A stretch of DNA of 64,000 bases from Mytilus trossulus. Its lineage: Eukaryota. The notes under the pieces are model-generated. The model was not told the DNA's origin. It saw nothing but the letters and a program-made list of their open reading frames with translations, and did no database searches. Position numbers and translations under genes: made by a program. Below, one piece after another: positions 6,721 through 42,655 of this stretch; the first letter of the stretch is position 1, and every line of letters begins with the position of its first letter. Location: NCBI RefSeq assembly GCF_036588685.1, contig NC_086376.1:44702001-44766000 (forward strand). Direction: 5' to 3'.

Positions 6721-7284
6721 ACAGGTTTTTAGACTGACAGAATTTAATTCGATGAAGACAAAGTCATTTAAATAGAAGTGTTGTATATTTAACAATTATG
6801 TAGCACAATTGAATCCGGCTTGAGACTATTTGTTCTAGTTTTGCAAAACAAACAAAAAAAGTGCCTCACTATGTTTGGATAATTTGTCTAAAAAAAACAA
6901 TAGATTATCAATCGATAAATGTATTATAATCAAACCAAACAGTTTTTGCGTGATCACTAGTATATTTTCTCACTGAATAGTTGCTTTTCTACACACACAC
7001 ACACACAAACAAACGTTAAACATAGATACAACGTTCTTGTTTTAGGTCAAGAGAAATATAACTTTGTGCCACGAACATAACCGATTCAGCAAATACAAAC
7101 TAACACGACACCATAAAAATGTTGAACTCCTTGGTCGACAACATATTTGTTTAATATGATAGAACTATATTCCAACTCGTTCAAATTTTGTACTCCTACT
7201 CATATTACATACAAGGAATTCATACTAAACTCTCTGAAATACAAATGGAAAAAGTGTTTTGCCAGTTCCGTAATATCACTTATA

Positions 7285-9669
7285 CACGGCTGGTAATCTA
7301 CACACGCAGAACATTTGGTTCTGCAATGAAAACCGTGAGAGGATCGTCCGGTTGTGCTTGAGTGGAGTTATTATAACCGCTTCAAAAGGTATGGACATTT
7401 CTAAATCGTAATTTTCTTATTCAACCGATCAAAATATTGAAAATCGGAGAATGCTTTGCTGTGGTGAATACTTGGACAAAGCGATACATCATTTATGGTT
7501 GTACGTGGAGATGACCTCCTACAAAATTAGTTGCCCCACGAGAAATTGCTTAAAAAAGTGAAATTTAATTTTGAAATGGTTATATTAACAGACCTACAAG
7601 TTCAAATTTAGGTTTTTTTTCGGTCGATTGGTATATATGTCGTTTTGGGCGTCGTGTATACTGTCCGGTGTTCATAGACGTCTTAAAAAATCTAAAAACT
7701 ACATGTTTTCATTATTTTATGCGTGAGGGGATTGGTTCTGATTGAGGACATCGTGAATGCGTGAGGGGACGTGAAATCATATCTTTTTATCCTGCAATTG
7801 GATGTTCTTCTATACAGATACATTTGTACATCCCTACAGATATCGCTATGCTGTATCAGTATAATATACAGATATCGCTTTAAGGGTCCGCCCACTGCCG
7901 GACGAAGTATTGTATGAACATGCGTGACCTCAGAATGTGTATTTCAGATGCATTCCAATAACGTACTGATTGCGAATTTACGATTCTTTTATACGTTCTG
8001 TACTGTTTGTTTTTAAACATTTCTTTAGAGCAATAAGAGTCACACCAATTTTCTGATAACATACACACATTAAAAGCAGTCTTTTCTACGATGACAACTA
8101 TCCATTTCAAAACTTGAATGTGTATGAAACAAAAACAACCATGTCGATTTCAGCATGAATGTTTAGTGAATGTCGAGTCTGAAGCGTAGGACAACTCGTA
8201 CACTCATCTTGCAAATTGGACAATGTTTTGTTATTTGTTTTATCTGTTGGAATTAGTTGTTATGTAAAAATAGATAATTATTCACCTTGAGCAATGTATT
8301 TTTGTTGACCATTCGGGTTTCTTCAGCTGAATATGTGATTACTGTATCGTAAATGTGTTTTTGTGTCTTTCAAAACACAAATAATATACAGAATTAATTG
8401 CAGGATAAAGACAATAACAGTTACTGTTTAGTGTCTTTAAACATCAGCAGTATTTGTACTCGGCTCGAAACAAGTGTAGTAGCTCGCTTAAAGCTCGCAT
8501 ACATCTTGTTTCCTAGCCTCGTACAAATACAGCTGATATTTAAAGACAGTTATTTTCTATATATCCTAACTATGAGTTGTTGAAAATTGCCTAAATTGTG
8601 GTTAGATTGTTCATGAAAAAAACAGATTTGTGTGCAGCAAAAATTATGAGATCGAATTTCAAATGAAATATTTGGCGTATGACGTTTTCATTTTTCAATT
8701 GCGTCGATCTTTTCTTTATATACATAAACAGTCTAACCAATAAATTGTGAATCTGTCTCAAAATTTGTAGATTTGGGCAAATAAGTAAACCGATTAGTTT
8801 CCCAAATCTGCACCCAAAAGACTTGGTGGTTTATTGTATAAATCAAAATATTTTAACAAACAACAGTTGTGTTTTCACAATCATTTTTTTTCTTCAAATA
8901 AACAATAAAGGGGAGAAAACTATTTTCGTAAAAAATATATATTGGGCTGATAGGGAAAATTAAAATTTTTACTTGAATCAAGAAAGCAAAAAAGTTTACA
9001 CATCTTTTTTATTCTTCTTCGTAAAAGATATAATATTAAACCTATCTTCCCAAAATTAATTTCAAGCTTCTACAGTATCTCATATTTTACCTATGCACTC
9101 AAATGTGTTCATGAACAATCTCAACAAATTTTGGCAACTTTCAACAACTCATAGCTTGGAAATAAATATACGATTTCACGTCCCCTGACACATTCACGAT
9201 GTCCTCAATCAGAACCGATCCCCTCACGCATAAAATAATGAAAACATGTTGTTTTTAGATTTATAAAGACGTCTATCAACACCGGACAGCATACACGACG
9301 CCCAAAAAGACATATATACCAATCGACCGAAAAAAACCTACATTTGAACTTGTTGGTCTGTTAATATAACCATTTCAAAATTTAAATGTCACTTTTTTAA
9401 GCAATTTCTCGTGGGGCAACTAATTTTGTAGGAGTTCATCTCCACGTACAACCATAAATGATACATGTATCGCTTCGTTCAAGTCTTCACCACAGCATAG
9501 CATTCTCCGATTTTCAATATTTTGATCGGTTGAATAAGAAAACTACGATTTAGAAATGTACATACCTTTTGAAGCGGTGATAATAACTCCACTCAAGCAC
9601 AACTGGACGATGCTCTCACGGTTTTCATTGCAGAACCAAATGTTCTGCGTGTGTAGATTACCAGCCATG
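7285..9669. mobile_element. Non-autonomous DNA transposon with ~490-bp TIRs, CAC terminus, 5-bp TSD TTATA
   Basis: 7285-~7775 is the reverse complement of ~9174-9669 with few mismatches; TTATA on both flanks; no transposase ORF. Confidence 0.9.
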
Positions 9670-11277
9670 TTATAGATATATTCATTAACATATCACTCGA
9701 TGAGATTGATTATGTAATAAATGTTTGGATAATTCTTTTAAAATATTATTTTTTCAATAAAAACGAAAGTCGTATTCTATTTGTCACATTTGTTTTAACG
9801 AAAGTAAGACAAGTGAGACGGGTGAGAATATTCGAGGGTCACACCATGTTCTTTAATGTGAAATGGCAAATGGTAAACGAACAGTCTCGCTTCAACACAG
9901 AATGATAACAACTTTTAAACTGACTGAAATTTGTATATTTCTGTAGGAGAGTGTTTTAAAGAACTGTTTATTTGTATCCGCATAAGATATTGACTTAAGT
10001 AAAATCTATAATTTGGTTTTGTGTCAGATCAGATAACCCTGGTGGTATCTTAAAGGGACTCTATACCATGATCGCTATTCTACTAGCATGTTCATCGTGT
10101 CTTATGTTGCCTTTAAAAGAAGATCTTAACTAAAAGATGAGTATAAAAAAAAGAATGAATTTAAATACCTATATGTTTTGAGAAGGAAAAAAATAAATAA
10201 TCCACATCAATGATTTGTGTAAAATGTAGCACACCTACTCAATCTAATCAAATTTTAAACAATCTATGCTACTTCAAGATATTTTATGAACGTATACATT
10301 TATCTTCATGCGGAATGACGCTCAAAAACCAAAACAACAAAACAAATGAAAGCAAAGGGTGGATAAAACATCAAGAGCTTAATGGCAAGAATGGACATGC
10401 AAGGATAGCTTACACTCTAAGGTCAACATTTCCAGATGCCGTTCGACTTTCCTTATATTTTCTCTGTAAAAATAAGCACCTATACATCTTATAGTTTTAC
10501 AGTTTCATCACATTGATAAATTTAAAAGTGTTATTCGAAAATAACTCCATTGACTGCATATTTTTGGCAAAAGTTCAGTTACCTGAAAAAGTCAAAGTTA
10601 GTATGCGCAAAACAGCAGAAACTCAATAACTTTATTCATTGATTTCTTTAAGTTCTTAAGTTTTCATCAAATACGAATGAAAATAAGAAGTGAACAGATC
10701 AGTTCTATTTTTTTTATTAAAGGAATTATGAGAATTTGAATACTGCAGGAGCTATACGACTAAAAGATACATAAAAGATTATCCAAATTATGCAGACGTC
10801 AACTTTCCTAGAGAGAAATGAAACCTTTTTTTTTCTAAATGATTTTAAATTTCTAAATTTTCAAATTAGAATGGAAGAAGAATGTGTACTATCATACCAG
10901 TACCGAGACATTGATTGACAATTAGTTGATAAAACTCCTCGGGAACCAACAGTGTAATATGATGAATTTAACTCAAAATCACAAATTATGTTTAATTCAT
11001 CGTCATTTGGTCCAATCAATTAGTGATCGTATTTGATCATTCTGTTAAGGTCTAAGGTAACAGGAAAGATTACTCTATTAAAAATGTAATAAGATTTTCA
11101 TACAACCATAAGTCGAAATATTTATGATATTTATAACTGTTTCACAAATACAGTAGAGGCTAAATATTGTAATGTTGAACCATTTTGCTTTGGGTCAATT
11201 ACGCGTATTTTGATTTTGCCAAATAGAATTCAATGTCCAAATAAACTCATCATAGATACCAGGACTAAATTTAGTAT

Positions 11278-11321
11278 ACGCCATACGCGTGTTTCGTCTA
11301 CAAGAGACTCATCAGTGACGC
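11278..11321 (-). ncRNA. Minimal type I hammerhead ribozyme (family A, GUA cleavage triplet)
   Basis: GCGUCA CUGAUGA GUCU-CUUGU-AGAC GAAA C-ACGC-G UA/ UGGCGU. Confidence 0.75.
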
Positions 11322-13630: not shown

Positions 13631-15756
13631 ATAGATATGTATTTTAATAGTCTCTCATAATACTTTTAAGAATGGCACATACATATATTCAATGTTTTAA
13701 ATATGTTTACTGTATATTTAACTATATAATTTATCTTGTTTTCATGATGTTGTATGTGGTGAGACTATTTTTAAAACTATTGAATCTGAATCTGAATCTA
13801 CTTTTGTCGACCTGTCTCGTGCATTAATTGGTTATCAAAGGTACCAGGATTATAATTCAATAACCCATTGTTGGCCTTCGGCTGTTGTCTGCTCTATGGT
13901 CGTGTTGTTGCCGCTTTGACACATTCCCCATTTCCATTCTCAATTTTATATCAGGAATAAGGAACCAGTATTATAAATTATTACACCAGACGCGCGTTTT
14001 GTCTACATAAGACTCACTAGTCACGCTAAGATCAAAATAGTTAGAAAGCCAAACAAGTACAAAGTCGATGAGTTGAAAAAACACCAGTACTGGCATTGAC
14101 CTCATTAATAAGTTTTCCCGGTCCACCACCTTTTTAGAACATACTAAATAATTCAATTGTTATACGTTTTGTCGTTTTTTTAATGTGTTTGTAATATTGT
14201 TCAGTTGACAATCAAAAATCATTCAGAACGCGATTATAAATGATTTGATATGATCAGATACTACAAAAAAATATAATTACAGTTATGGCATATTAAGGCA
14301 ACAATAGTATACCAGTGTACAAAAGTTATAAATCGAATAACAGAAACAATCCGGGTTACAAACTAAAACCGTGGACTAAGCATGTTTCTATATGATGATA
14401 ATTAGAGTGATAATTAGGAGTTTTGTTGCGTTTATTTGTGTTTGTTAAACATGTTGTTAAAATACAATATCTATTTTTCTATTAGTTGAAAATCACATTT
14501 AAAACATTCAACGCCTTAACTTGCTTTATAAGGAACGATGGAAGTTGCAAAGACCAGTTCGTACGTGTGTTGACTGATTCATATGAATAAAATCTCAATT
14601 AATCACTGACAGTTGCTATTTTAGATTGATTGTTTGGCCCTTAACAGCACAGAAAGGCTATATCGGGACGACCATTAAATTGAATCATTTGAAATATATG
14701 TTCGTATGTTACGAATCTATTTTAGCTGTGTCAACAGTTGCACGCCGTTTTTGTAGGGTCGCTATTTTCATAAATTTAAAATGTATTCCTAGAATAGACA
14801 CACATGTTTTTAACATATTGAAGCATTAAAAACGCTTTACCAGATTGATCTAATGTATTTTTTTCCTCATTTTGAACTTCTAAAATGTTGAATTTGTTAA
14901 TTGCCGCATTTGTTTTTGCAAATGTAAGACCAAGGAGACTGGGTATGAATGTTATTGAAATACCCTTTATAAATGTTTAATGTATGTCTCTTTGTGCCAG
15001 ACAATCAAAATTCACCATCTGATAAAATTTCACAGAAAGTTTATCATTAGTCCCTTACAGTCCATGTGAGCAATACAAGTAGATCGATAATCATGTACAG
15101 ATAGATATTATTGACAGGCCCATTAATCATTGTTGTGTAGGGACAACAGGTATATTGTCGATTGCAGATATAAATTCATATAATATTTATATATATATTA
15201 CACAATAGAATACGATGTCGAGCCATACTAATTGAAAATATTATTTCTGAAATACGATTGAAAATTTGACTGTAGAAGAATGAAGTTGATCTACTACAAA
15301 TATATATTAAAGATATTGAATTGATATGATGCAGTTATTAAGAGTATAAGAAATAAAAATGGGATAAAACATAAAAATTGGTTTTGTTACTGATAAAAAA
15401 ATGAATCGTTTACCCTTCTTCGTGTTGTTTATTCTTTAGTTTTCCATATTGTGTCATGTGTACTATTGTTTGTCTGTTTGTCTTTTTCATTTCTAGCCAT
15501 GGCGTTGTCAGTTTATTTTAGATATATGAGTTTGACTGTCCGTTTGATATTTTTCGTCCCTCTTTTCTTGATAAAAAGAAATCTTATATATATACCTTCC
15601 GGAGCACCTGAGGTCACCCCTAGTTTTTGGTGGGGTTTGTGTTGATTATTCTTTAGTTTTCTATGTTGTGTCATGTGTTCTATTTTTATTATGAATTTTC
15701 ATATACGTGAAACATACTGTTAATAGTTATCAAAGGTACCAAGATTATAATTTAGT

Positions 15757-15800
15757 ACGCCAGACGCGCGTTTCGTCTACATAAGACTCATCAGTGACGC
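15757..15800 (-). ncRNA. Minimal type I hammerhead ribozyme, intact
   Basis: GCGUCA CUGAUGA GUC-UUAUGUA-GAC GAAA C-GCGC-G UC/ UGGCGU; predicted cut between 15763 and 15762. Confidence 0.88.
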
Positions 15801-16111
15801 TAAAATCAAAATATGTATAAAGTCAAACAAGTACAAAGTTGAAGAGCATTGAGAATCCAAAATTCCAAAAAGTTGTGCCAAATACGGCTAAGGTAATCTG
15901 TGCCTGGGATAAGAAAATCCTTAGTTTTTCAAAAAAATCAAAGTTTTGTAAACAGGAAATTTATAAAAATGACCACATTATTGATATTCATGTCAACACC
16001 GAAGTGTTGACTACTGGGCTGGTGATACCCTTGGGAACGAAACGTCCACCAGCAGTGGCATTGACCCAGTGGTATAAATAGTTATCAAAGGTACCAGGAT
16101 TATAATTTAGT

Positions 16112-16155
16112 ACGCCAGACGCGCGTTTCGTCCACATAATACTCATCAGTGACGC
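16112..16155 (-). ncRNA. Minimal type I hammerhead ribozyme, core intact, stem II weakened
   Basis: GCGUCA CUGAUGA GUAUUAUGUGGAC GAAA CGCGCG UC/ UGGCGU; predicted cut between 16118 and 16117. Confidence 0.78.
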
Positions 16156-17217
16156 TCAAATCAAAATATGTATAAAGCCAAACAAGTACAAAATGTATAA
16201 ATCATATAATGATGTACAAATCAACATATAAATATTGTCGTCAATGTAGTAAAAGTGGTAGAACACGTAGCTGATTAATGGAGTGAATGCGAAGTGCAAG
16301 AATGGTATATCCCAGCCCAGTAATTAGATCTTCTGTGACATAAATTCTTGTCTGACGTACACAGAGTTCCATTTTGAATCTTTCTTTAATCCTAATAATT
16401 ATGTTGCCGCAGTTTCTGAGTAAGGAGCACGCTCCTGAATATGAAGTACGTAAAGTGTGAAATTTCACGAGCACAACGAACTCAGATATATTAACACCTT
16501 ACGCTGAGACAGAAGGTATGTTACTGCTGAGAAATGAGAAATTTAAAATTGGGAATTTGAGTTCTCTTTTTGTATTTTACAAGGTTCTTAATGAGTTCTG
16601 ATTCATATTAGTTCAAAAACCAATCGGCCAGGAGTAGTGCATAATAAGTACCCATTGGAATACCGACTGTCTGTTGAAATAATAATCCTCCAAATTTAAG
16701 AAATATTTTGTCGATAAAAATTCTTTTTTATAACGCATGCTGTTTCTTTTATGCAAATATGAATTCCATAATATTAAGGAAATGTGGTATGATTTGATCT
16801 AGAAAATCAACTTTTACAATTGTCCTACCTCTAACATTTATTTTTATAGATTTTTAAATCAACGTGTTTAACTAATTGACTAGGGATCTTTTAATTCTGT
16901 TCATGGTCCATTTGAAATTTGTTTTCCGATAATTATTAAGAATGGTTCCATCCTATATTAACCCCTAATTAGTTTGATATGGATTGTTTAAATTTTACTT
17001 TTCAGAATTTTTATTTATTGATTAGTTGTAGTAGCTTGTGTTCGTTTTATAGAGTGTTTTTATATAATTTTAGAACAAACAATAAACACTATAAATATTT
17101 AGTACGTTATTTTAACATAATTTTGATATTGATGATACGAAATGGTAAATAGGTATTTCATTGATTTTATTCATAACGTACAAATCATTCTTAATTTCTG
17201 CATTGCCATCAGGATTC

Positions 17218-18324
17218 TCAATACTTCTCTTTGATTTCAGCAGACGCGATGTTCTGTTTGACATCAATCTCACGAACCTTGTTTAATTGCTTTGGTCTTA
17301 CTACTGATTTCTCGCTGGGCCTGTTTCCAATATGAGCGATGCCGTATAACTGTACAAATGTTTCAACAAATATTGGGATAATAAGCGACATCATAATGAT
17401 TCCACACAATGCGCATACAGAGCACGCCATTTTCCCGACAAAAGTTTTAGGCGATAAATCTCCATAACCAACCGTAGTCAAGGTTATTAGTCCTAACCAC
17501 CATCCTTGTGGTATGCTATCAATATTGTCTCTCTCTTCTGCCAAGTAGATGATGTTCGCAAAAATCAATAGAATGATGACAATGTGAAACAGCAATACAA
17601 GAAGGTCCTTCGAATTCTGTCAAAGTGAAAATTTTAGCACCTTTACAGCAGCTAGATGTTGACAATATCGCAATAACCTTATCACTCTTAGAAACTTTAT
17701 AAAATCAACCAGACTTGTGAAAGTAGGCGAAAACTTATATCCACTCTTCATATTAAATATAACAATGTCAACATATGTGCCGATCAGAACTACAAATTCA
17801 ATAACATTTAAAAAATTCATGAAGTAAACTTTTAAACTTGGACAAACCAATAACCTTAATAATAGTTCAACTGTGAAAAAAGCTGTAGCAAGATAATCAA
17901 TCTGGTAGAAAATGTCATTTTTGAAAGTCAACGTTGGGAAAGTCGTTTTTAACGTGTCCTGCTGGCTATCATGTTCAGCTATACTTCCGTTCTGCGTTAC
18001 ATTTGTTGAAGAAGTTGTAATTTGAGGATTTCCTTTATAAGGAATAGATCTTTTACCGACATGCTGTTTTTGAGGCTGAAACTGCTGAGGTGGTTCCTTT
18101 TGGTCAAAATCAAATTGAAACTCGTTTCCTGTTGTAGTTATTTTAAGCAAATGACAGTCGTACTTCATGAAATAGTTTTTAACTTCTGGGTTAATTGCAT
18201 CATCAGCAACTACATATTCATACCATTCACATGTAGTCAGGGTACGTTTGTATTGTGGCAAAGTACTGAGTGCAAGTGTACTAACCGACAGCAAAACGAA
18301 GGCAACACCAACGAATAAGAATAT
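17218..18324 (-). pseudogene. Kv-B exon 2 (S1-S6, TTVGYGD pore) interrupted by one in-frame TGA at 17620-17622
   Basis: ttgcag|IFLFVGV...; S4 KFLRVIRLLRY; VLKFSL*QNSKDLLVLLFHI continues in frame through the pore and S6. Confidence 0.75.
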
Positions 18325-19562
18325 CTGCAAATAGTAAAACAGGTTCATGAAAAATATATACATACGAGTATATGTTTTTTGTTTTGTTGCTCTGGAGAAT
18401 AACAAATACTAGTTTTAGCAAATGAAGGCAAATTTTCACGGTTTTTTTTTTCTACCAAAAAGTCTCCAAATCTGGATTAAAACTAGTATGACAACGTCAT
18501 GTGTGAATTTAAGTTTCTAACATTATTTCGGCACTTTTTCTGAAAATAAAACAAAAGTATAAAATGGCTTAAGACGACAAAACAATGAAACGTAGATATT
18601 GACTATTTTTTAGTAATTTGCACAAAATTATAATTTTGAACCTAATTAGAATTCTATTTCAGAAATGATTTTTATTCAAATCAAGCAATGCAACATGTTA
18701 GTTAAGAGTGTCCTTTGTTTAAAAATTTAACAATATAAAACGTTTTTGTATTAACTTAACACTTACTTAAAGATGCGAGACCTATGATTAAGTACGCCAA
18801 ACATGCGTCAGTGATGAGTCTTTTGTAGACGAAACACGTCTCCTGTGGTCCAGGAACAAAGTTATCGTCTCTAAATTTTCCTTGTCTACAAGTAAAGTCG
18901 CTAGTGTGGACAGTGTATGACTTTCCATTATTTTCTATACCCTTTCCAAAAATATTTCTTCAAGTTTTATGCACCAAATAGAAAGTAAGGGACTTAAATA
19001 ACACTGTTTGAAATTTAAAGAAAATGAGTATTGACATGAACACGGTGTTAATCTCAAATTCGTCCTGTGTTCTAGAATGTGACCTACCGACGCTACGAAT
19101 GCCACATATGGATTAGGATCTGCTTACAATTTAGGAACAATTGAGATCAACCTGGTCTGTGATTGGGTTCGTTGTGCTCCATCTCTAGGTTTCATTGTTG
19201 TGTTTTGTGTAATATTGGTTTATCGCTTTTTTCTTTCCTTTTTTTTTTTGGTATTCGCATATCATATATGCCAGGATTTATATTGTACACCAAAATCACG
19301 TTGCCTCAATAAAAGACTCATACATGACGTTGGAATAAAAATGAGTTATAAAACCAAATATGGTACGAAGTAGAAGAGCGTTGAGGGCCAACATTTTTAC
19401 TCGATTTACAAATACAGCTAGGGTAATATTTTACTAGGTAGAAAAGCCTTATTTTTTTGAAAATTAAAGCTTATGGTACCTCACTTGTGATACGCTTGTC
19501 GGTGATTATTCGCTTAGAGAAAAATTGCTTAATATACATTAATGTCTGTCACCATTATTTAC

Positions 19563-25617: not shown

Positions 25618-25883
25618 ATGGGTGTTGACATGAATATCAATTATGTGATCATCTTTATAAATTTACTGTTAACAAAACTTAACTTGACTTTTTATGAAAA
25701 AATAAGGATTTTCTTATCCCACGAATAGATTAACTTAGCAGTATTGGACACAACTTTTTGGAATTTTGGAACCGCAATGCTCTTTAACTTCGTTCTTGTT
25801 TGGCTTTATAAATATTTTGATATGAACGTCACTGTTGAGTCTTATGTAGACGAAACGCGCGTCTGGCGTACTAAATTATAATC
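25618..25883 (+). mobile_element. Retrozyme family A partial copy; hammerhead 25826-25869 with CUGUUGA core variant
   Basis: ACGTCA CTGTTGA GTCTTATGTAGAC GAAA CGCGCGTC TGGCGT. Confidence 0.8.
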
Positions 25884-26084
25884 CTGGTACCTTTGATAAC
25901 TATTTAATATTTCGCCTGACCTTTGACACTCATACATCAATAATTAAAAATGAAAACATGTTATCTGATATAATATATACCAAGACATATTCAAATATAA
26001 TTTTGAATTCTTAATTCATTTCTAAAATAATCCGGATGTAGCGCAAATTAAAACAGTGAATTACAGATGTTAACAATGTAATAA

Positions 26085-26400
26085 ATCGATAATAAAATCA
26101 ACGGTACCAATTTTGTTGCACCAGATGCGCATTTCGACAATATATGTCTCTTCAGTGATGCTCGTGGCCAAAATATTTGAAATCCAAAGCACATATAAAA
26201 GATGAAGAGCTATAATTCAAAAGGTCCTAAAAGTATAGCCAAATTCGTGAAAGGAATCAGAGCTTTGCATCAGGGAGATACATTCCTTAATTTATAATAA
26301 TTTCTAATATTTTGTAACAGCAAATTTTAATAACACAAAAAATCCGTATTTTCATGCCAGTACCGAAGTACTGGCTACTGGGCTGGTGATACCATCGGGC
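26085..26400 (-). mobile_element. Retrozyme family B partial copy
   Basis: Collinear with but diverged from family A; shares CTACTGGGCTGGTGATACC and a hammerhead. Confidence 0.75.
26118..26161 (-). ncRNA. Minimal type I hammerhead ribozyme (family B), intact
   Basis: GCAUCA CUGAAGA GACA-UAUAU-UGUC GAAA U-GCGC-A UC/ UGGUGC. Confidence 0.85.
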
Positions 26401-27362
26401 ACTAAAGGAGACAAATCAAAATAAAAAAAACACAAACTGATGTAATCCAATGAATATAAAAAAAAAACGGCCAGATCAGTGCGTACAGATAGTAAGCGAT
26501 TCCTGCTTTTCAAGCATTTTCCGCCATGCAAATCTACAATTAGACAAAAGTAAAATCACAAAAATACTGAACTTAGAGGAAAATCAATTCGGAAAGTCCA
26601 TAGTCACATGGCAATATCAAATAACAAAACGCATAAAACAAATGGACAAGAACTGTCATATTCCTGACTTGGTACAGGCATTTTCAAATGTAGAAAATGG
26701 TGGATTAAACCTGGTTTTATAGCGCTAACCCTCTCACTTTGATGATAGTATCATCAAATTCCGTTATATTTACATTGATGCGTTAATTAAACAGACACAA
26801 TAAATAAAATAGTCAAAATATGGGTACATCGGTCATCATCGTATAACAATTCTAAAAGGAACAATTTAACAGAACACAAAAACATCTACTATCTACAAAC
26901 ACATTCGTTGATTTGTGCGAATCATCTCCCTAGCTAATAGACAGAGACATATCGTACTGATATCGTACAAATTGTGATGGTTACTGTTAAACTTGTATAG
27001 TGTCGCTCTTCTTCTTATCTCTACAGAAGCAGTTTGTGCGGAAAGGGACCGCATGTACAAATGAAGTGTAAAGTGTGAACAAGTGTAACTCATCAATTGA
27101 TATATGCAAACGCCATACGATATGGCAGAGGATTTGTTAAGCTACGAAATAGGAAATTGACATTGGAAAGAAATTGGCGAGTGGAAAGTTTAAATCATTA
27201 TGTTTTATAGACTGTTGTTTGAAGTTGTCCATATCGAGAATAAGATCAAAATACAAAGCAGAAGTGAAAGTTTCCGTTATAGTCTGAGCATAAGTTCATG
27301 CGGATATATGAGTTGCATAGACGCACTGAAATGTTGATTATTTAATGACATGGCATCATTAA

Positions 27363-33338: not shown

Positions 33339-34976
33339 GTAGGTATTTTTCAAAGATAGATTCTTTTATTACGAGTCCAATAAGTAGAATACGTATTTCT
33401 GGTAAAGACTAGCTCCATCAAATATCTCTAGACTAAAAAGTTGGGAAAGCCTAATAACAAATAGGTTACCGTGAAGAAGAAAAAAACTTGACAGTTCAAA
33501 CACAATTTTATATCCTTGCACTAGGGAATGACAACCTCCGTTTTAGTAGATTTATATAACTTCTATAATATTCTTCTATCGAGAATACATTTTGAGGCCT
33601 CAATACTTTTAATGTCGTACCTAATTTGGCCTCTTTAACTTTTTATATTCCTGCGTTTATTATGAGTCTAGAAAAGAAAATTTTAATCCTGGTATCTATA
33701 ATGATTTTATTGTAAACTGATATTTTAGAGTCATAATGCTTATGTAATTCATACATATATAATCTACTACTGGCTACTCACTATACATAGGCACTGAATC
33801 GGAGATAAAAGTTCAAAACATTTTAATTCAACTTTTCATTTTGGTAGTAAGTCCTTGACGGATATTCCGAATATCTTTTTATTCATGACAAAGTCAAGGT
33901 TTTATCATATTATATTTTTACGTATGCTATACGACTTGTTGTTTTTTTAAATTTTGCCATTTGATTGGGGACTTTCCGGTTTGAATTTTCCTCGTATTTT
34001 GGGGAATTTACTTTTTACTAATATTCTGCTGCTTTTGTGAAATATAACACTCTATTAAATTTTGTTCTTTTTGTTCAGCTTTTTTTGCATCAATTATTTA
34101 ATAAAAATTTCCTAAGAGGTTTCGCGGAACCATGTGTCTCGTCTGTGATTGCTGCTGTTAGTGTAAAATGTAATGCTTTTCTAAAACGTGAATTAATTTC
34201 CAGTAAGATACAGATTTGAAGGGGAAATTAAAGCTGTCTGTAGATGCTATATTTTCGTATAGAAGATAAACGTCTGTCCATTCTCATCACAATCTTCGAA
34301 GTTTTACAAATGTATCATGTCTAAGAAATGTAACCTCAAATCAGTACTATCTGTCAAAACTTCAGTCCGTCTTTCAGAAAAATACTGAAATTGGTAATAT
34401 ATTTTAAAAGTTTGCTTCATACATTATCTCGTTATCATAGTAAAGGCTTCCGAAAAAGTTTTTACGAAAGTTTGACAAAGAAATTGGTGTGTTTCAAACT
34501 TAACACATGGTTGACCCCATGACTCTGACCTCTTGCTAACTATATTTTGATCATTAACAAGCTGCTGTCAAAATTTTATAAAATCCCATCAAAGTTTGAC
34601 AAAGTTATTGAAAAACTGAAAAACATCGACATCAGACTGATTCTAAATGGTTCTAAATGGTAACGGTAAAAAAACGAAGTCTATTCAACAGTAAAATCAA
34701 GAAAAACAATTAATAAAAAAACAATATTTTCTAAATTTTGCATAGGATGCGATTGTTTATAGAAATAAGTAGACGAGACAACACTCAATCAAAGTCACAA
34801 TGATTAAAAAGAAAACATCATGATAAACGGTCAAAGTACGGATTTTAAACATTGAATTTGGACAGCAGGACCTCGCATCAAATTAACTAAAATCTGCGAT
34901 CAACTGGACAATAACGATCATACACAAAATTGTAGCCATAATTGATAGGTTTATGTCTATTTTTTTATTATTTCAG

Positions 34977-36011
34977 TTGTACCTCATAGTTGGGATAACT
35001 ATCGTGTTACTTTCAGTGGGAGTATTGGCCTTAAGTACGTTGTCGAACTTCAGAAGTCCTGTTCCACTTTGTGAGGCTTTTAAATATATGTCATTTGGGG
35101 AGGCAGAATGCAACATTGCCACAGCATACGCAGACCAAGACTGTAACACGCTAAAAGCGAAATTTAAGGAAGATGAATCCTACATGTACTATATGGACCC
35201 GTCTTTCTATGATGATGACCAAACAAATACTAGTAATAATGATTCTCTTAAACAAAAATTCGAACAATTTCTTGCAAGAAACCATACAGGAGTAACTCAA
35301 AAATCAAAAATGTTTGTCAAAATTGACCATTTTTTTACAGCATTCTTTACAGCTGAGTTTTTGCTAAGGCTGTTTGTGTGTCCCAATATGAAAGCTTTTT
35401 TCACAAGTATCCTCAATTTGATTGAAATGTTCATTTTAGTCGGAACATACGTCGTTATAGCAGTTTCAAATTCGAAATTAAGACCTACATGTACTGATTT
35501 AATGAGTGTCATTGAAGATTTCATGGATTTTATCAAAATGATTCGAGTTATCCGGCTGTTGCGATATTGTCAAAATTTGGCAGCGGTTCGCGTGCTTACC
35601 TTTTCGATAAAGAAAAATGTGAAAGATCTTATCCTACTTTTCTTTCATATATCTCTCATTGTGTTGATCTTTGGAAACATAGTGTACCTTTCTGAGGATA
35701 GACACAACATCGATAGTATACCACAAGGGTGGTGGCTTGGGGTCATTACTATAACAACGGTTGGATTTGGTGATGTGGTCCCAACATCTGTTGCTGGAAA
35801 GATCATATGCTCCGCCTGCGCTTTATGTGGTATTTTAACTCTTGCATTGCTAACTTCCATATTTGTTGAAACTTTCATGGCCTTATATGGTGTGGCACAG
35901 ATTGACACGGTACCAAAAGAAGATCGTATCAGAAGGTGGGATCATTATTCCAAGAAAAATAGAGGAAATGGATGTCCAGATTTCATAGACATAAAGAAAA
36001 CAAAGATTTAA
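34977..36011 (+). CDS. Kv-C exon 2, S1-S6 with TTVGFGD pore (total protein 491 aa)
   Basis: tttcag|LYLIVG...; S4 KMIRVIRLLRY; WWLGVITITTVGFGD; S6 CALCGILTLALLTSIF; intact ORF. Confidence 0.92.
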   Translation: MYLIVGITIVLLSVGVLALSTLSNFRSPVPLCEAFKYMSFGEAECNIATAYADQDCNTLKAKFKEDESYMYYMDPSFYDDDQTNTSNNDSLKQKFEQFLARNHTGVTQKSKMFVKIDHFFTAFFTAEFLLRLFVCPNMKAFFTSILNLIEMFILVGTYVVIAVSNSKLRPTCTDLMSVIEDFMDFIKMIRVIRLLRYCQNLAAVRVLTFSIKKNVKDLILLFFHISLIVLIFGNIVYLSEDRHNIDSIPQGWWLGVITITTVGFGDVVPTSVAGKIICSACALCGILTLALLTSIFVETFMALYGVAQIDTVPKEDRIRRWDHYSKKNRGNGCPDFIDIKKTKI

Positions 36012-41983: not shown

Positions 41984-42655
41984 ACTGTCTGTCTACTCCT
42001 TGCTACAATTGTTGTACGATCTTATAATAACCTAGTTGATACATATATGGTCTTGTTTTGCTTACTAGACTCTAACCCTAGCTACAGTTGTTTTAAGATT
42101 TTATAATAACCTAGTTGATACATACTGTCTGTCTATCTCCTAGCTATAGTTGTTGTAAGATCTTATAATAACCTAGTTGATACATACTGTCTTGTCTACT
42201 CCTAGCTACAGTTGTTGTAAGATCTTATAATAACCTCGTTGATACATACTGTCTGTCTACTCCTAGCTACAGTTGTTGTAAGATCTCATAATAACCTAGT
42301 TGATACATACTGTCTGTCTACTCCTAGCTACAGTTGTTGTAAGATATTATAATAACCTAGTTGATACATACTGTCTGTCTACTCCTAGCTACAGTTGTTG
42401 AAAGATCTCATAATAACCTAGTTGATACATACTGTCTGTCTACTCCTAGCTACAGTTGTTGTACGATATTATAATAACCTAGTTGATACATACTGTCTGT
42501 CTACTCCTAGCTACAGTTGTTGTAAGATCTCATAATAACCTAGTTGATACATACTGTCTGTCTACTCCTAGCTACAGTTGTTGTACGATATTATAATAAC
42601 CTAGTTGATACATACTGTCTGTCTACTCCTAGCTACAGTTGTTGTAAGATTTTAT
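41984..42655. repeat. 61-bp minisatellite, ~11 copies
   Basis: Unit TACTGTCTGTCTACTCCTAGCTACAGTTGTTGTAAGATCTTATAATAACCTAGTTGATACA. Confidence 0.95.

Follow-up and report, generated by a model that had tools for sequence, protein, structure and literature searches.

A truncated family B retrozyme copy in Mytilus trossulus and the likely cleavage of its family as a double hammerhead

The stretch of Mytilus trossulus DNA analysed here (64,000 nt, referred to as the window) carries on its minus strand a short hammerhead motif whose helix III segment is an 8-nt palindrome. The question raised by this locus is what kind of element the motif belongs to, and whether the palindrome implies that the ribozyme works as a dimer. 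The locus was identified as a mussel non-LTR retrozyme: a copy, young and lacking its 5' part, of a non-coding tandem repeat with a 350-nt unit. On the reading preferred here, to which a probability of roughly 0.7 was given, this truncated copy belongs to a family that likely cleaves best as a double hammerhead of neighbouring units within one multimeric transcript.

The features of the locus are listed in Table 1. The hammerhead core consensus is CUGANGA, GAAA and NUH, and cleavage takes place after NUH. A type I hammerhead was defined by this core with helices II and III closed and helix I open, and both the core and the helix topology were found in the intact motif of the window copy. The letters of the family B hammerhead are GCAUCA / CUGAAGA / GACA-UAUAU-UGUC / GAA / AUGCGCAU / C / UGGUGC. 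In the monomer, the palindrome AUGCGCAU gives a 2-bp helix III with a GCGC loop, and in a double hammerhead it gives an 8-bp duplex. The Rfam scan of the window returned no match at the gathering thresholds, and such short-helix motifs were located by descriptor. The copy is shorter than one full unit, holds a single hammerhead, contains no frame of at least 120 aa and is 97.5% identical to an array unit from locus L005. Its sole neighbour is an opposite-strand family A copy with a broken core, so the window copy has no usable partner and no dimer is possible in cis at this locus; nor can a complete monomer be released from the window copy.

Table 1. Coordinates of the family B copy, its parts and the family A copies in the window.
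Feature	Position in window	Strand	Basis or remark
Family B retrozyme insertion	26090..26405	(-)	316 nt; unit positions 69-350 plus 34-nt tail
Type I hammerhead, family B, intact	26118..26161	(-)	Descriptor search, 0 core mismatches
Helix I 5' strand GCAUCA	26156..26161	(-)	Sequence and pair table
Core CUGAAGA, N7 = A (family A: U)	26149..26155	(-)	
Helix II, 4 bp, with 5-nt loop	26136..26148	(-)	Loop II variable among amplified subfamilies
Palindrome AUGCGCAU	26125..26132	(-)	Sequence, folding models
Predicted cleavage site, 3' of AUC (C17 = 26124)	26123..26124	(-)	Hammerhead consensus, established knowledge
Helix I 3' strand UGGUGC	26118..26123	(-)	Predicted loop 3 partner in lone copy or monomer circle (off fold)
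Tail, from cleavage site to fixed 3' end of B insertions	26090..26123	(-)	33-36 nt
Family A neighbour copy, truncated	25621..25904	(+)	Hammerhead 25826-25869 with broken core CUGUUGA
Family A 1.3-mer	15718..16192	(-)	Two hammerheads 355 nt apart; the window's family A reference
Family A hammerheads in the window	15757-15800, 16112-16155, 11278-11321	(-)	

Metazoan non-LTR retrozymes were defined by tandem units of about 150-450 nt with one type I hammerhead each, a GC content below 50%, the absence of coding sequence and the absence of an LTR pair. The family B unit agrees with this definition in its length (350 nt), its GC content (38%), its head-to-tail arrays across the genome, its non-coding nature and its lack of an LTR pair, and the identity of the element as a retrozyme is virtually certain. 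Exact B cores numbered 4,826 in the whole genome and exact A cores 16,117, and the reversed control pattern gave 0 in both cases. Cores with the CCGG loop (family C) numbered 3,049, and those with the CUAG loop (family D) 732. The A and B units share 75% identity over their full length. Families C and D are related, with units of 550-571 nt that are unrelated to A and B outside the ribozyme. Loop II variants fill whole arrays, and TGTTT or TATAT was found in 26 of the first 100 of the 4,826 B cores listed.

In Mytilus galloprovincialis, type I hammerheads of two families, about 5,000 of them, have been reported in 350-390-bp repeats, together with circular RNA (PMC7229834). The present elements resemble those non-LTR retrozymes in the type I hammerhead, the AT-rich tandem repeats of 350-390 nt, the presence of two families and the expressed RNA. 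The 375-nt Rtz of that species carries the family A hammerhead, according to a by-eye match with Additional file 11 of PMC4918200, and family B is likely the second family of the published mussel work. The portions of that account drawn on here contain neither 550-570-nt families nor covariation in loop 3, and they treat the motif as active in single copy (PMC7229834). The novelty is lower than an earlier note on this DNA implied, since two mussel families have been published and the idea of dimers formed through a palindrome is general for motifs with a short helix III (PMC4209133, PMC3088659 Fig. S8, PMC6765202). With the kind of element, family A, a second family and the dimer principle already in print, the addition made here is modest and incremental.

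The ends of 36 B insertions were compared, at loci partly picked for their likeness to the window copy. In 32 of the 36, the distance from the cleavage site to the 3' end was 33-36 nt, and the 5' ends were scattered. Loose ends of RNA reads coincided with the fixed 3' end. When present, target-site duplications of such retrozymes exceed 4 bp; a simple common-substring test found no consistent duplication among the 36 insertions. The fixed 3' end and ragged 5' ends are as expected if copying always starts at one place on a circle or multimer. A tail of 30-40 bp is described as a Penelope-like feature (PMC8557442), and vertebrate retrozymes are derived from Penelope-like elements according to a 2026 preprint. 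The minimal hammerheads of Penelope-like elements are similar to family B in being of type I, in the palindromic 15.2-16.2 pair and loop 3, in the dimer model (PMC4209133), and in tandem and inverted copies with a 30-40-nt tail (PMC8557442). In contrast to them, the unit of family B has no ORF, and its hammerhead combines canonical helices of 6 bp and 4 bp with a helix III of 2 bp. The minimal class was defined by an absent or minimal helix III, a long helix II, an extra base between A9 and G10.1 and a position within a pLTR; family B falls outside it, with its 2-bp helix III, its 4-bp helix II and no extra base after A9.

Several other properties of the arrays were observed. The best-conserved stretch between A and B lies just past the fixed 3' end (L005:1430-1500, B unit about 35-100) and folds as a hairpin. 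The C and D insertions lie within (TA)n tracts, and 12 of 27 chains end at unit position 371; tail-to-tail pairs share a single tract (L073:1119-1130 and L110:1684-1697, the latter with one D and one C). The (TA)n sequence is a described target of Naiad (PMC8557442). At L115:3174-3178, a C array on the minus strand and a B array on the plus strand meet head to head, 3 nt apart, as if two different templates had been copied at one break. A 769-nt chimeric unit, present three times at L109:1280-3088, contains two hammerheads separated by 233 nt, a damaged one of family A and an intact one of family B. In a large part of family C, AUA replaces AUC at the cleavage site (for example at L073:134-177); this form is allowed by the NUH rule, fills whole arrays and is present in RNA reads.

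Expression was studied in four raw RNA runs matched by species label. The B unit was covered throughout in all four, and its head-to-tail joint was spanned by 345, 205, 340 and 70 reads, respectively. Circles and tandem transcripts look alike in such data, so these reads do not separate the two. The ribozyme-sense strand was in excess in three of the four runs, assuming the usual stranded library, and no pile-up of read ends was seen at the predicted cleavage site in the four runs. Reads of C type, whose detection rests on overlap with the B hammerhead, showed the two outer loop changes in near-equal numbers in every run.

The A and B hammerheads differ at 12 of 44 positions, and 9 of these differences fall among the 24 paired positions. 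The paired changes comprise four double changes and one change from G.U to G-C, and all 12 pairs are kept; the claim of the earlier note that B departs from A in all stems and still pairs was thus confirmed. When changes were placed at random, following the spectrum of substitutions seen elsewhere in the unit, all pairs were kept in 158 of 1,000,000 placements, which supports the note's view that the structure is under selection. In a structure alignment, 99% of the cells were paired on 14 distinct, hand-picked rows (two singletons were chosen for their loops). The corresponding shuffles (0/500) leave relatedness uncorrected on hand-picked rows and were not treated as a separate line of support. 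As had been noted, each of the two 8-mers is a perfect palindrome. The inner four letters of loop 3, GCGC, are identical in the two families, so that their comparison gives no covariation in loop 3. In the monomer, helix III consists of exactly the two outer pairs of the palindrome, and the changed pair 15.2-16.2, C-G in A and U-A in B, C and D, fits the monomer hairpin equally; therefore, the A/B covariation cannot show dimers. Dimeric catalysis, which the earlier note had drawn from these two families, is likely on other grounds, namely the loops of C and D and the folding energies.

Loop 3 reads GCGC in A and B, CCGG in C and CUAG in D, and in all four amplified families the loop together with helix III has stayed self-complementary through sequence change. 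In the genome, 2,095 cores matched a pattern in which the two outer letters of the loop are altered; in a hand count of the first 100 listed, 49 had CCGG and 27 had CUAG, with helix III intact. The outer pair changed from G-C to C-G, and its pairing in the monomer would close a 2-nt loop. The inner pair changed from C-G to U-A, and this pair is unable to form within one strand. Judged from sequence, the CCGG and CUAG loops are compensatory at pairs that would be formed only by the double hammerhead. The single-step intermediates CUGG (36, of 38 matches) and CCAG (44, of 60 matches) in the genome search were rare and mostly scattered, had a C-type loop II and look as CpG decay would give. Small non-palindromic arrays are real exceptions and count against the dimer reading: one at C8:9607560 consists of three units with CCAG, and one at C11:7234270 of two units with CGAG.

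The majority columns of C and D (8 and 5 units, respectively) differ at 24 of 546 sites, and among 18 CpG sites the loop-3 CpG is the only one changed from CG to TA. The neutral odds of the inner-pair change between C and D were roughly estimated at 0.0006, or 0.008 when 14 pairs are considered. Copies of B with a changed inner loop letter numbered 203 and 133, compared with 4,826 intact ones. Selection for the double hammerhead is probable. Against it, the loop covariation comes from two independent events only, both in the C/D lineage, and the dimer reading of B is carried over from C and D, whose body is unrelated to that of B, by homology. A literature search with the supplement of PMC7229834 and Lunse et al. 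outside its scope, where this covariation or families B, C and D may be described, returned nothing on loop-3 covariation in mussels.

Three groups of altered loops were considered and rejected. The non-palindromic CUGC group, a possible counter-example, made up 17 of the first 100 listed of the 203 B-mutant rows, all at C5 between 74 and 83.5 Mb. In the six loci fetched, these copies are all cut off on the 5' side at unit position 245 and run beyond the tail into one and the same flanking sequence, which marks them as duplicated along with host DNA. The region concerned (L126-L131) is a multi-kilobase duplication with a short-period tandem repeat; the B-like fragments in it are old and truncated, and their loops read CUGC and CCUU. 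B-type GAUC loops were single units in mixed old arrays or lone copies and do not form a family, and the UAUA loop at L087 was a deletion artefact.

The folding of the ribozymes was modelled with nearest-neighbour energies, which omit magnesium and tertiary contacts. In isolated 44-mers, the probability of the monomer helix III was at most 0.001. The double hammerhead was the lowest-energy cofold for AA (-29.5 kcal/mol), BB (-27.3 kcal/mol) and CC (-24.3 kcal/mol), and tied for the lowest for DD (-20.8 kcal/mol). In natural two-unit transcripts, the double form lay 9.8-14.2 kcal/mol below two monomer forms in all four families. Against the dimer reading, the models of freely folding two-unit transcripts gave a central dimer pair probability of 0.66 for B and a low one (0.04-0.23) for A, C and D, and the free ensemble was predicted to lie 6-9 kcal/mol below the double form.

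The strongest rival explanation, though an unlikely one, is that the cleaving form is the monomer, with its helix III of 2 bp; the palindrome would then be a relic or would enhance cleavage slightly, and founder accidents would account for the CCGG and CUAG loops. A cloned single mussel copy cleaved co-transcriptionally at about 0.1/min, in a passage that does not give the family of the clone (PMC7229834), and a review counts most invertebrate motifs as efficient monomers (PMC7761336). This in vitro activity of a single copy weighs against the dimer reading, as does the second possible role of GCGC in A and B; T7 run-off assays may nevertheless be compatible with dimers acting in trans. The monomer explanation also gains from the small number of loop events (two) and from the monomer fold of family A, which is stronger than the others (-5.7 versus -3.7, -1.9 and -1.9 kcal/mol). 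However, among decayed copies with both inner letters changed, which serve as a control for random double changes, 31 of the first 100 of 185 listed were palindromic (hand count). In addition, single changes would be expected to exceed double changes about 40-fold at the C/D divergence, yet only the palindromic double change was amplified.

A second rival, improbable in our view, holds that loop 3 is kept mainly for an off-switch hairpin with the 3' strand of helix I, which would protect the circle and leave the palindrome incidental. In modelled monomer circles, loop 3 paired with this strand at a probability of 0.81 in B and 0.35 in A, and the probability of helix I did not exceed 0.02 in any of the four families, as such a switch would have it. 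In the circles of C and D, loop 3 had no strong partner (at most 0.25) and the off fold used the downstream ACACC instead; yet C and D are the families that show the loop covariation.

The last rival, a strong form of the within-family idea of the earlier note, holds that family-specific palindromes were selected to stop the A, B, C and D RNAs from cross-pairing, and is very improbable. Any drift that preserves homodimers weakens heterodimers without selection against them. All six modelled heterodimers were weaker than both homodimers, with 1-5 mismatches each (A/B, -13.4 kcal/mol with two C.A mismatches), and B and C RNAs were found in the same runs, as this explanation would need. Against it, 256 of 265 same-strand neighbour pairs were of one family (386 distinct motifs at 145 fetched loci, not a random sample, with C and D counted together), and all nine mixed pairs, from three loci, included one partner with a broken loop. 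One-family arrays follow from the copying of one circle, so heterodimers would be rare in cis and no counter-selection is needed. The preference for dimers within a family, which the earlier note had expected, is accordingly predicted by the folding energies but need not have been selected.

In the double-hammerhead reading, two palindromes of a tandem transcript would pair into the 8-bp helix III with the helix I strands swapped, and both sites of the double hammerhead would be cut to release the monomer. The released monomer would be circularised and would then fold into the off state. Copying of the circle by a Penelope-type enzyme would always start at one point, about 34 nt beyond the cleavage site, and would give one-family arrays with ragged 5' ends. 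Mussel retrozymes are reported to be cut, ligated by an RtcB-type ligase and accumulated as circles. Why the hammerhead stays silent in the circles of animal retrozymes is a question that PMC7229834 leaves unanswered. A tentative extension, somewhat doubtful at present, is that the hammerheads are copy-number switches, on only as the double form in multimers and off in the monomer circle, with the family-specific palindrome (GCGC with two flanks, CCGG or CUAG) as the key. If true, this would account for the mostly circular state of mussel retrozyme RNA, would revise the view of invertebrate retrozyme ribozymes as monomers and would make the four families a natural, mutually orthogonal set of dimeric ribozymes.

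Double-hammerhead ribozymes were reportedly described by Forster in 1988. The satellite hammerheads of newt and axolotl and that of ASBVd are similar to the mussel motifs in having a short helix III, a palindromic tetraloop and tandem repeats. Amex2 of axolotl shares the 2-bp helix III and the tetraloop, and its cleavage is far more efficient in the dimer (PMC7229834). Dependence on the dimer was measured in those systems, whereas it is inferred for the mussel families. The mussel differs from them in that four families in one genome yield covariation inside the loop, and such covariation is comparative evidence of a selected ribozyme pairing, even in a class competent as monomers.

Other features were observed in the window. 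A 61-nt tandem repeat (9.5 copies, 94% matches) occupies 42077-42655, and a 30-nt tandem repeat of about 21 copies occupies 2306-2995. Open frames of 374 codons (34887-36011, plus strand) and 262 codons (17620-18408, minus strand) are present. At 7272-9682, inverted repeats with arms of 218, 85 and 179 nt, 93-96% complementary, flank about 1.4 kb and are like those of a non-autonomous DNA transposon.
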